Origin: a virus
Reading direction: 5' to 3' (one strand)
IMG/VR virus record: IMGVR_UViG_3300029827_000114
DNA length: 17,584 bases
The notes below the pieces were generated by a model, which saw only the letters and a list, made by a program, of their open reading frames with translations, did not search any database and had not been told where the DNA came from. Below, one piece after another: positions 13,255 through 14,803 of the stretch (within the stretch, counting starts at the first letter, position 1; the number at the start of each line of letters is the position of its first letter). A program made the position numbers and the translations under genes.

Positions 13255-13464
13255 ATGAAGGGATATGGTTTGCCAAGGAATGATGATGTGGCTAATCCAG
13301 ATGTGGCTGATATATGTCTGTATGGATTGAATACATCATCTGGTGGTAAATGTTATCAAAAATCGGGGTCTAAAAGTAGGTCAAGGAGGATTTGGAAGAA
13401 GAAAGAGAGAAGAAAAGCAAGAAAATATTGTATGATTTTTTTTGAAGAAAGGATGGATTTATGA
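13255..13464 (+). CDS. Hypothetical basic protein
   Basis: 69 aa with an Arg/Lys-rich C-terminus. Confidence 0.4.
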   Translation: MKGYGLPRNDDVANPDVADICLYGLNTSSGGKCYQKSGSKSRSRRIWKKKERRKARKYCMIFFEERMDL

Positions 13465-13979
13465 AAAAAGACGGATGGGATCGAGCTGAAGAAAGATGGA
13501 AGAGAACTGCAAGAAAAGGACCATGGTCATTATTTGTGAAAATTGTTATTACTGTGCTTTTATTGAGTGCAATTTTTGGAGCAATTGGCATGGTTTGTGG
13601 GACAGCAAAGGAGGCTGTTCAAGTTGCAAGGGATGAATTTGGTCCGAAAGCACTATTGAAAAAGTATGAGTGGTTCAAGGATATGGCTGCAACTTGTGAT
13701 AAGTTGAGAGCCAATATCAAAGTAACAGAAACTAGAATTGACCAAATGGAACAGGATTACAGTGGAGTTCCTAGAAATGAATGGGATAGAGTTGATAAAC
13801 AAACTATGTCTCAATGGAAAGCAGAGTTTGCAGGCATAAAAGGAGCATATAACGATGCTGCTTCTCGTTATAATGCTCAAATGGCCAAGTTTAATTGGAG
13901 GTTTACAGAGATAGGGTCTTTGCCTGAAGGGGCAACAGAACCACTTCCTAGGGAGTTTAAGCCGTATGTTGAGAAATAA
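13461..13979 (+). CDS. Membrane protein, single N-terminal TM plus coiled-coil region
   Basis: ATGA overlap. Hydrophobic segment VKIVITVLLLSAIFGAIGMV. No LemA RRxDLIPNL motif. Confidence 0.5.
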   Translation: MKKDGWDRAEERWKRTARKGPWSLFVKIVITVLLLSAIFGAIGMVCGTAKEAVQVARDEFGPKALLKKYEWFKDMAATCDKLRANIKVTETRIDQMEQDYSGVPRNEWDRVDKQTMSQWKAEFAGIKGAYNDAASRYNAQMAKFNWRFTEIGSLPEGATEPLPREFKPYVEK

Positions 13980-14148
13980 TAGAAAGATCATAGAATCAAA
14001 AAGAGGTTTTACGCTTGTTGAATTGATGATAGTTTTGATTATATTGGGGATTATGTTTTCCGTTTCCGTTTATGCAATAAGAAGTTTTTTGGCAGGGAAT
14101 AGAAATGTTGATGAAATTGTAGAAAATGAAAATGTAATAGAAATGTAG
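13966..14148 (+). CDS. Prepilin-type (type IV pilin / pseudopilin-like) mini-protein
   Basis: KRGFTLVELMIVLIILGI matches the class III signal / N-methylation motif G-[FYLIVM]-[ST]-[LT]-[LIVP]-E followed by a hydrophobic helix. The predicted mature part is only about 46 aa. Confidence 0.55.
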   Translation: MLRNNRKIIESKRGFTLVELMIVLIILGIMFSVSVYAIRSFLAGNRNVDEIVENENVIEM

Positions 14149-14188
14149 GTAATTATTTGGTTGTAAACCAAGAAAGGATTGATGAGTT

Positions 14189-14803
14189 ATGAAAAGGTTG
14201 TTTTTTGTTGGATTGTGTGTTCTTTTTGTTGGATGTGATTTTGGAAATACGGAATATAAAGAGCCACAGTCAAAATCAGGTGTGACTAAAGCCACAGTCA
14301 AGATTAAAACAGATGAGAATGGATTTACTGTTGAACAGAAAAACATTGGTAGACGTTTGAAAATTGATAATGAATCAGGAAGTATTAAACATTTGTATAT
14401 TGTATCATCCTATACTGGAGATGTTATTTTGTATTCAACAGTAAAAGGAAAAGTAACGAGTTCAGGAAAAAGATTAAATCCATATAGTGTAGCTGCTGGT
14501 GGAGTTGGAAAAGGTTCTAATCGTCCTGGTTATTATGGTATTAAAGTTTCAGTTGGTGGAAGTGTTTACCGTACTAGCGAGGTTCTTCAAGATGATGGAA
14601 CATATGGTCATTCAATGGAATATCTTTATTGGTGGGATATGAATGATATATATCGTCAAGTATATGTAACAGGAGGAGCAATGCCAATAATAAGTTCTGA
14701 GCCTTTGGCATTCCCAAAAGTTATTTTGAATGTGGATGATTCATGGTCGCCGAAAAAAAATAAGTCAGATGATGCATTATCTTCAAAAAAAAATTCTGAA
14801 TAA
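14189..14803 (+). CDS. Putative lipoprotein
   Basis: Signal peptide MKRLFFVGLCVLFVGC with a lipobox-like VGC. The mature part is Gly/Ser/Tyr-rich. Confidence 0.5.
   Translation: MKRLFFVGLCVLFVGCDFGNTEYKEPQSKSGVTKATVKIKTDENGFTVEQKNIGRRLKIDNESGSIKHLYIVSSYTGDVILYSTVKGKVTSSGKRLNPYSVAAGGVGKGSNRPGYYGIKVSVGGSVYRTSEVLQDDGTYGHSMEYLYWWDMNDIYRQVYVTGGAMPIISSEPLAFPKVILNVDDSWSPKKNKSDDALSSKKNSE

Follow-up and report, generated by a model that had tools for sequence, protein, structure and literature searches.

A headless prepilin-type mini-protein beside a conserved membrane protein and lipoprotein gene pair in large uncultured phages: a possible pilin mimic

We analysed a stretch of viral DNA of 17,584 nucleotides (IMG/VR record IMGVR_UViG_3300029827_000114; the whole stretch is called the window below) which carries three consecutive genes for a single-pass transmembrane (TM) protein, a mini-protein of 60 amino acids (aa) with a prepilin-type signal, and a lipoprotein. 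As judged from its conservation, the small open reading frame (ORF) in the middle is shown to be a real, selected and conserved gene of a large uncultured phage. Its product may, together with the two neighbouring proteins, act as a pilin mimic toward the type IV filament machinery of the host. We propose this function tentatively; it is the most likely mode of action because the determinants of pilin assembly are kept, while the pilin head is missing.

The mini-protein (positions 13966-14148) consists of MLRNNRKIIESKRG before the predicted cut and FTLVELMIVLIILGIMFSVSVYAIRSFLAGNRNVDEIVENENVIEM after it. The first-pass annotation had recognised here a class-III (prepilin peptidase) signal, and this signal is genuine: the Pfam model N_methyl (PF07963) matches with an E-value of 2.1e-8 and 33.8 bits, above its gathering cut-off of 21.2, and the NCBIfam model TIGR02532 matches with 33.3 bits, above its cut-off of 16.3. 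All determinants of such a signal are present, i.e., a basic leader ending in Gly, Phe at +1, Glu at +5 and a hydrophobic helix, with the Kyte-Doolittle maximum at residues 20-38. The NCBIfam equivalog models of pilins and pseudopilins matched the N-terminus only, and all their scores were far under the cut-offs. When the 14-aa leader is taken off, exactly 46 aa are left, which agrees with the mature length of about 46 given before; they make up one hydrophobic helix and a tail that is acidic, its final 16 residues having a net charge of about -4. No globular head, i.e., no alpha-beta roll on alpha1C, is found in the mini-protein, and the helix is followed by about 20 residues, mostly acidic. 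The mini-ORF start overlaps the end of the TM gene (13461-13979) by 14 nucleotides (nt), as had been noted, and the position of a Shine-Dalgarno-like GGGAG inside the TM gene suggests translational coupling of the mini-ORF. A promoter and terminator scan, which gave no enrichment, found no plus-strand terminator within the three-gene array.

Direct homologues of the mini-protein form 13 clusters of 59-60 aa with at least 80% identity and an intact ORF. The mini-ORF is intact and syntenic in L006, L008, L012, L153, L154, L157 and L158 (L numbers denote loci). It could be followed further in diverged relatives: the mini-ORF has 53 aa in L006, 74 aa in L153, 47 aa in L154 and ~47 aa in L163, where the TM protein is 69%, 65%, 63% and ~50% identical to that of the window, respectively. 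The mini-ORFs of L006, L153 and L154 score above the N_methyl cut-off; that of L163 is known from the class-III motif search only, with no N_methyl scan. All four follow a common design of leader, GFTL(V/I)EL or GYTLIEL, helix and acidic tail, and the tail motif DEI..E..V(E/I)EM is common to the window, L006 and L153. Within this phage clade the GFTL(V/I)EL or GYTLIEL motif, and with it G-1, F/Y+1 and E+5, is kept, while the rest of the mini-protein is down to 24-39% identity and the synonymous divergence (dS) of the flanks is saturated. Between the window and L006, also with saturated dS in the flanks, the mini-ORF is open, the motif is kept, and the ratio of nonsynonymous to synonymous divergence (dN/dS) is 0.29. 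In an alignment of 11 mini-proteins (A3) invariance is limited to G-1, T+2 and E+5, with F+1 and L+3 close to it. With the ORF intact in 13 clusters and also in L006, L153, L154 and L163, whose flanking proteins are only 50-69% identical, the motif match is not due to chance.

The two neighbours of the mini-ORF form a pair of their own. Hidden Markov models (HMMs) from alignments A1 and A2 were run on all ORFs of loci, the first set of which came from scans of GTDB genomes and IMG/VR. In this set, the TM gene was directly adjacent and on the same strand in 140 of 148 lipoprotein loci; the TM gene came first in 86 of these pairs and the lipoprotein gene in 54 (~40%). An independent metagenome sample, picked with the TM profile, contained the pair in 68 of 68 loci with room for it. 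Many of the 140 loci belong to Patescibacteria, others to Poribacteria (complete chromosomes included) and Obscuribacterales/Melainabacteria, with a few in other phyla and one on an Aneurinibacillus plasmid. There are 64 viral contigs among the pair loci, many of them of 100-370 kb. The named sources of homologues include Parcubacteria, Berkelbacteria, other Patescibacteria and 'Nanoarchaeia' metagenome-assembled genomes (MAGs), and the typical identity for both proteins is ~50%, even between phage and distant phyla. The chromosomal position of the pair is constant among 13 Poribacteria genomes; in L002 the pair stands among prolyl-tRNA synthetase (ProRS), RsgA and folate genes. No third gene family is generally linked to it, only lineage-specific synteny being seen. 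The pair is self-contained and widespread, usually without a mini-pilin, and mainly cellular as well as phage-borne, none of which the first-pass annotation had foreseen.

Several further features of the pair loci were observed. A tandem lipoprotein paralogue lies upstream of the lipoprotein-TM pair in Obscuribacterales/Melainabacteria (L032, L041, L043, L048, L053, L055, L057, L059, L060, L063-L065 and L067), and some MAGs of this group hold several cassette copies. The pair loci L014, L035, L058 and L082 are in MAGs labelled Nanoarchaeia, Nanoarchaeota or Woesearchaeota, and L012 (CAYUTF010000008.1), a 65-kb contig of the same phage as the window, is in a bin labelled 'uncultured archaeon'. 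These archaeal labels probably arose by mis-binning of contigs that belong to phages or Patescibacteria of the ultrasmall size fraction.

The mini-pilin is a recurrent, optional third member of the pair. A class-III pattern search in 1.58 Mb of loci returned 21 ORFs, 19 at the pair and 2 evident false positives. Mini-ORFs with a TM helix plus acidic tail accounted for 12 of 487 small ORFs near the pair and for 0 of 2253 elsewhere. The order TM-mini-lipoprotein is seen in the window clade, L154 and L163, the order mini-TM-lipoprotein in L128 (N_methyl 32.9 bits), and the order mini-lipoprotein-TM in L097 (36.5 bits); in L064, a Melainabacteria contig with the tandem paralogue, the mini-ORF (26.2 bits) precedes both lipoprotein genes and the TM gene. 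An N_methyl helix is fused to the lipoprotein itself in L021 (33.1 bits) and in the family member P0031 (29.1 bits), and the fusion is borderline in P0083 and P0086. L004 carries an N_methyl protein of 194 aa 5 kb from the pair. Since the nearest lipoprotein relatives (63-80% identical) of L128, L097, L064 and L021 are without a mini-ORF, its repeated gain or loss is suggested. Altogether, ~4% of the pairs have a separate mini-pilin and ~2-3% a fused one.

The first-pass annotation had described the three genes as an envelope-acting module, and this description held up: the bulk of all three products is predicted, from the positive-inside rule and class-III topology, to lie on the outer face of the cytoplasmic membrane, and N_methyl mini-ORFs recur beside the pair in several lineages. 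Neither the TM protein nor the lipoprotein matched anything in searches of Pfam, NCBIfam, PHROG, PADLOC and PDB, and the pair is therefore a candidate new envelope module.

The lipobox lipoprotein reported downstream of the mini-ORF is also found as described. ORF 14189-14803 has an n-region, an h-region and a lipobox ending in Cys16, so that lipidation is predicted, and its predicted structure is beta-rich (predicted local distance difference test, pLDDT, 78.6). There are 2074 homologous clusters; a Cys near the N-terminus occurs in 118 of 120 homologues, and in ~110 it stands in a lipobox-like context. The +2 residue is Asp in 54 and Glu in 15 of the 118 (69/118, 58%), a bias which is striking for a lipoprotein family spanning monoderm-like and diderm phyla; in enterobacteria, Asp at +2 means inner-membrane retention of lipoproteins. 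A tblastn search against GenBank phages gave nothing. In a profile search of 1.84 billion representatives we obtained 367 clusters at the 50% identity level and no bridge to another family, and BFVD gave one match, to an unnamed viral protein. Some long members of the family (P0259, P0262 and others) appear as TM-lipoprotein fusions; we left these aside as apparent artefacts of frameshifts or gene calling. Comparison of the window with L008 (8001-8621) showed only 72% identity of the lipoproteins in phages that are otherwise near-identical, with a dS of 0.70 for the lipoprotein gene versus 0.17 for the TM gene and 0.015 for the RlaP gene. The signal peptide and the C-terminal tail are identical in the two, and it looks as if the central domain had been swapped by recombination.

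For the TM protein, an AlphaFold2 (AF2) model with a mean pLDDT of 86 gave a TM helix and a long helical hairpin, in keeping with the single-TM coiled-coil protein named in the first-pass annotation, and a fold search returned generic helical hairpins only. A LemA-like identity was rejected, as there was neither a match to Pfam LemA (PF04011) nor a LemA fold. The family (202 homologous clusters) has as its hallmark an invariant C-terminal tail, LPxGAxxPLPREFKPY; in alignment A2 the invariant residues are L154, P155, G157, A158, P161, L162, P163, R164 and Y169. Among GenBank phages only weak Rhizobium-phage matches were found. They are truncated, distant homologues of 136 aa in the cultured phages RL2RES (L237 1989-2399) and RHph_I1_9 (L238 1935-2345), detected with the A2 HMM at E-values of 1e-17 to 1e-19 and encoded downstream of a large vWA-domain protein. 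Since these homologues lack the PLPREFKPY tail and also a lipoprotein neighbour, the tail would fit a docking element to the lipoprotein, as far as this one lineage can tell. The idea that the mini-protein tail mimics the extreme C-terminus of the TM protein (...PVEM and ...PYVEE, respectively) is weak because the residues after PREFKPY vary across the TM family. In a related phage, L011, an HNH endonuclease gene (8554-9285) is inserted directly 3' of the TM gene; its product holds a duplicated copy of the TM C-terminal coding sequence (...EPLPREFKPYV...), an arrangement resembling homing-endonuclease insertion with target duplication.

How might the three products act together? The three genes would be co-transcribed, the mini-ORF being perhaps translationally coupled to the TM gene. 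A host prepilin peptidase of the PilD/ComC type would cut off the leader and methylate Phe1, and the 46-aa product would then stay in the cytoplasmic membrane like the pool of pilins before assembly. Its acidic tail would lie outside, beside the ectodomain of the TM protein and the basic lipoprotein (isoelectric point of ~8.9). The target of the mimic may be the pilus, the competence pseudopilus or the type II secretion system of the host, and the mini-protein may serve either as a competing or chain-poisoning subunit, or as an adaptor which brings the TM/lipoprotein pair to the filament machinery. In the infected cell, processes that depend on pili would be altered or blocked, be it attachment, the uptake of DNA or superinfection by pilus-specific phages. 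The first-pass annotation had suggested a pseudopilin-like factor or an interference with competence or pili, and either role appears plausible. In pilins, Glu+5 is required for assembly, and not for membrane anchoring or cleavage. We favour the pilin mimic because Glu+5 is kept in the diverged phage clade and because mini-proteins of this kind are also encoded by phages that lack the pair.

Such proteins are known from cultured phages (phrog_10597, phrog_13280 and phrog_11263), with examples in Pseudomonas, Aeromonas and Vibrio phages. Like the mini-protein, they combine a class-III signal with a single helix and a short, charged tail; they are 47-79 aa long, come from large phages and are annotated as hypothetical or of unknown function. 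However, their similarity to the mini-protein is limited to the N-terminal motif, and no TM/lipoprotein pair adjoins them. One of them is ORF_028 of Pseudomonas phage vB_PaeM_PAO1_Ab06 (L155 1501-1680), of 59 aa, which scores 41.3 bits with N_methyl and is annotated as hypothetical; this phage is a cultured P. aeruginosa myovirus, and ORF_028 would offer a tractable model for phage mini-pilins. In the literature we found no direct study of phage N_methyl mini-proteins or phage-encoded pseudopilins. With type IV pilins and pseudopilins themselves the mini-protein shares the basic leader ending in Gly, Phe+1, Glu+5 and the hydrophobic alpha1N, and it passes both curated cut-offs, but alpha1C and the globular head are lacking, and its mature part, of only 46 residues, has an acidic end. 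Moreover, no equivalog model was passed, and the gene is phage-encoded and outside any pilus or secretion operon.

Viruses are known to use or to block the pilus machinery of their hosts. The Pf phage protein PfsE, D3112 Tip and DMS3 Aqs1 shut down host pili to block superinfection, PfsE being a tiny inner-membrane protein. The analogy of these small phage proteins with ours is functional only; they bind PilC or PilB, are not pilin mimics and have no sequence relation to the mini-protein; the reference list of PMC12378983 includes PfsE as a small phage membrane protein that blocks pili. A further precedent is given by the pilins of the archaeal provirus SNJ2, virus-encoded class-III proteins which are processed and assembled by the host machinery (PMC12426801), although these are full-size, archaeal and filament-building, while the mini-protein is bacterial-type and headless.

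Several observations weigh against the pilin mimic. In the flanks of ~230 loci a crude motif test found neither a PilB/PilT-type ATPase (T2SSE Walker-A) nor an A24 prepilin-peptidase motif, and no Pfam families of pili, competence or type II secretion were found in the window or its relatives; phage genes, for their part, need not be linked to the host machinery on which they act. The dN/dS of the mini-ORF between the window and L008 is 1.5, a value from 7 differences only. Outside the phage clade, the mini-ORFs were detected by their motif, so that the invariant Glu+5 is there in part a matter of ascertainment. About 95% of the pairs are without a mini-pilin, which is therefore dispensable for the pair. 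Finally, the slot of the mini-ORF also holds small single-TM proteins that are not class-III, in L153 (5522-5743 and 5745-5945, beside the mini-pilin and between the TM and lipoprotein genes) and in L011 (9441-9641). Their acidic tails end hydrophobic-Glu-hydrophobic (...SEIEV, ...EAVEI, ...EVVEI), and since they have no class-III signal, it may be the tail that matters, and not the pilin-like anchor.

This last point leads to the main rival explanation, in which the class-III helix is a mere N-in/C-out anchor, the acidic tail docks on the basic lipoprotein or on the ectodomain of the TM protein, and the mini-protein is an accessory or regulatory subunit that has nothing to do with type IV filaments. 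We consider it rather doubtful. It would account for the adjacency to the pair in four arrangements and in fused forms, for the 14-nt overlap, for the like acidic tails of the slot proteins just described, for the lack of pilus genes nearby in the crude motif test, and for the charge complementarity between the tail (-4 to -7) and the basic lipoprotein; besides, the lipoprotein family itself swaps its N-terminal anchors, lipobox versus N_methyl helix. However, an anchor alone needs no strict retention of G-1, F/Y+1 and a membrane-buried Glu+5 across the phage clade, mini-proteins of this kind exist in phages that have no pair (PAO1_Ab06), and the tails of the L097 and L064 mini-proteins are not acidic. 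In a wider view, which seems to us unlikely, the pair would be an unrecognised envelope system having the type IV pilin membrane pool as its natural client, and the mini-pilin would be a phage adaptor or decoy to the pilus or competence machinery; this would concern at least 2000 protein clusters, from Patescibacteria, Poribacteria, Melainabacteria and many jumbo phages. It is quite unlikely that the mini-protein is a true minimal structural pilin which polymerises, perhaps with the lipoprotein as its head in trans (a split pilin). The mature size of 46 aa with all assembly determinants would allow it, and Flp/Tad (type IVc) pilins, with ~45-50 mature residues and essentially one helix, are of comparable size. 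However, the N-terminus is here of the type IVa or type II secretion kind, and an Flp pilin was rejected because FTLVEL follows the cut instead of G/XXXXEY and Flp_Fap (PF04964) gave no match at E<=1. A split pilin is known in Geobacter, where PilA-N (GSU1496), a cellular, helix-only pilin of 61 aa mature, is followed by a co-oriented and co-transcribed beta-rich protein with its own signal peptide, PilA-C (GSU1497), which GSU1496 needs and which is read as the pilin head split off by gene fission (PMC5174107). A few members of the lipoprotein family do have an N_methyl helix in cis, but the lipobox Cys usually follows the helix in these fused forms, so that the helix may simply be cleaved off like a signal peptide. 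In evolutionary terms, a split pilin of the Geobacter type was rejected, since the lipoprotein has no pilin fold and usually no pilin is adjacent; its family is independent, overwhelmingly lipoprotein and normally the partner of a TM protein, and no assembly genes were seen nearby in the crude motif test.

The mini-ORF might also be an evolutionary leftover with little or no function, i.e., the 5' end of an earlier N_methyl-lipoprotein fusion, orphaned when recombination replaced the lipoprotein allele. The existence of fused forms, the position of the mini-ORF directly before a lipoprotein gene in three of four arrangements, the visible swap of the lipoprotein between close relatives, the close-range dN/dS of 1.5 and the seemingly arbitrary tails of L097 and L064 could be explained in this way. 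Against it, the ORF of the window clade has stayed open with the class-III motif and the DEI..E..VEM tail despite saturated flank dS, it is intact in 13 clusters and has a ribosome-binding site of its own, and in L128 its place is before the TM gene and not before the lipoprotein gene. We thus regard a leftover as very unlikely. A role in lysis, which had been among the first suggestions, is disfavoured and, in the form of a lysis cassette with the TM protein as i-spanin, the lipoprotein as o-spanin and the mini-protein as holin or antiholin, largely refuted, with hardly any probability left to it. The layout does recall Rz/Rz1, with an N-in TM protein with periplasmic coiled coil adjoining a lipoprotein gene and a small charged-tail TM protein alongside; the likeness is one of architecture only, and the TM protein had no match among PHROG spanins. 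An o-spanin is a small outer-membrane lipoprotein, the i-spanin gene comes first, and the genes are phage-restricted and belong to a lysis cassette with holin and endolysin. Here, in contrast, no family of endolysins or holins is encoded within ~8-10 kb, either in the window or in its relatives, and the lipoprotein has 204 aa, is beta-rich and ~50% identical across phyla, carries Asp or Glu at +2 in 58% of cases and comes first in 54 of 140 loci. The pair also stands in stable chromosomal synteny in the 13 Poribacteria genomes and on cellular contigs beside housekeeping genes, and it is frequent in Patescibacteria, a group presumed to have no outer membrane.

Table 1. Positions of the three genes and their features in the window.
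Feature	Position	Strand	Basis or remark
Single-pass (N-in) membrane protein, 172 aa	13461..13979	+	ORF, AF2, family alignment A2
TM helix, residues ~24-46 of the TM protein	13530-13598	+	basic cytoplasmic N-terminus precedes
Extracytoplasmic helical hairpin, residues 62-143 of the TM protein	13644-13889	+	
Conserved C-terminal tail GSLPEGATEPLPREFKPY of the TM protein	13914-13967	+	
Shine-Dalgarno-like GGGAG, 10 nt 5' of the mini-pilin ATG, within the TM gene 3' end	13951..13955	+	sequence read
Prepilin-type mini-protein (headless pilin), 60 aa including leader	13966..14148	+	N_methyl, TIGR02532, homologous clusters, synteny
Class-III leader MLRNNRKIIESKRG, 14 aa, net positive	13966..14007	+	N_methyl match position
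Predicted prepilin-peptidase cut after Gly14	14005-14007	+	G-1 invariant in mini-protein alignment A3
Mature N-terminus and hydrophobic alpha1N-like helix FTLVELMIVLIILGIMFSVSVYAI	14008..14079	+	Kyte-Doolittle, alignment A3
Phe+1 of the mini-protein	14008-14010	+	
Glu+5 of the mini-protein	14020-14022	+	
Short extracytoplasmic tail RSFLAGNRNVDEIVENENVIEM of the mini-protein	14080..14145	+	charge, tail motif
Shine-Dalgarno-like AAGGA, 10 nt 5' of the lipoprotein ATG	14174..14178	+	sequence read
Lipoprotein, 204 aa	14189..14803	+	starts MKRLFFVGLCVLFVGC, followed by D
Lipoprotein signal peptide, residues 1-15	14189-14233	+	
Lipobox LFVGC, Cys16, Asp at +2	14234-14236 (Cys16)	+	
Conserved beta-rich domain of ~150 aa after the lipobox, then K/S-rich C-terminal tail	within 14189..14803	+	

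The window is part of a metagenome scaffold of 21 kb. Its relatives lie on contigs of 63-188 kb, among them contigs of 158-188 kb, with the same accessory genes, encoding a major-vault-protein-like protein of 879-884 aa, an RlaP nucleotidyltransferase, a DUF3268 protein and a Panacea-domain protein, and we therefore take the source to be a large uncultured phage. No close relative was found among GenBank phages, the DNA search giving a 123-nt match only, and no tRNAs were found. The vault-like protein, which is unusual for a phage, is encoded at 7709-10348 (+) and has 879 aa in the window. It is similar to the major vault protein of eukaryotes, as seen with Pfam MVP_shoulder at E 3e-24 and, for residues 494-863, with the major vault protein of the PDB at E 5e-15, and is kept in related large-phage contigs (L006 2151-4805, L008 2227-4881). 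Other co-directional accessory genes, at 14839-15819, 15952-16398, 16956-17474, 2172-2897 and 4104-4991, encode an RlaP-type nucleotidyltransferase (PF10127, PHROG 388), a DUF3268 zinc-finger protein, a SocA/Panacea antitoxin-like protein, a thymidylate kinase and a DHH-family phosphoesterase, respectively.

Short N_methyl proteins of phages are already known as an uncharacterised category with PHROG families. What appears to be new here is the extreme reduction, to 46 mature residues with a type IVa-style N-terminus, and the recurrent embedding in a strictly linked, unannotated gene pair. Proteins consisting of a pilin N-terminus only are present in many large phages, cultured Pseudomonas phages included, and a conserved genomic partner now gives them a testable hypothesis. 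If the class-III helix were merely an anchor, the finding would be a modest curiosity. If the pair were an envelope system with pilins as its clients, phages of ultrasmall pilus-dependent bacteria would gain a new control of attachment, DNA uptake and superinfection. Should the mini-pilin be a pilin mimic, as we tentatively favour, this would be a new mechanism of pilus interference, by substrate mimicry rather than by binding of PilB or PilC, and it may concern Patescibacteria, whose lifestyle depends on type IV pili.

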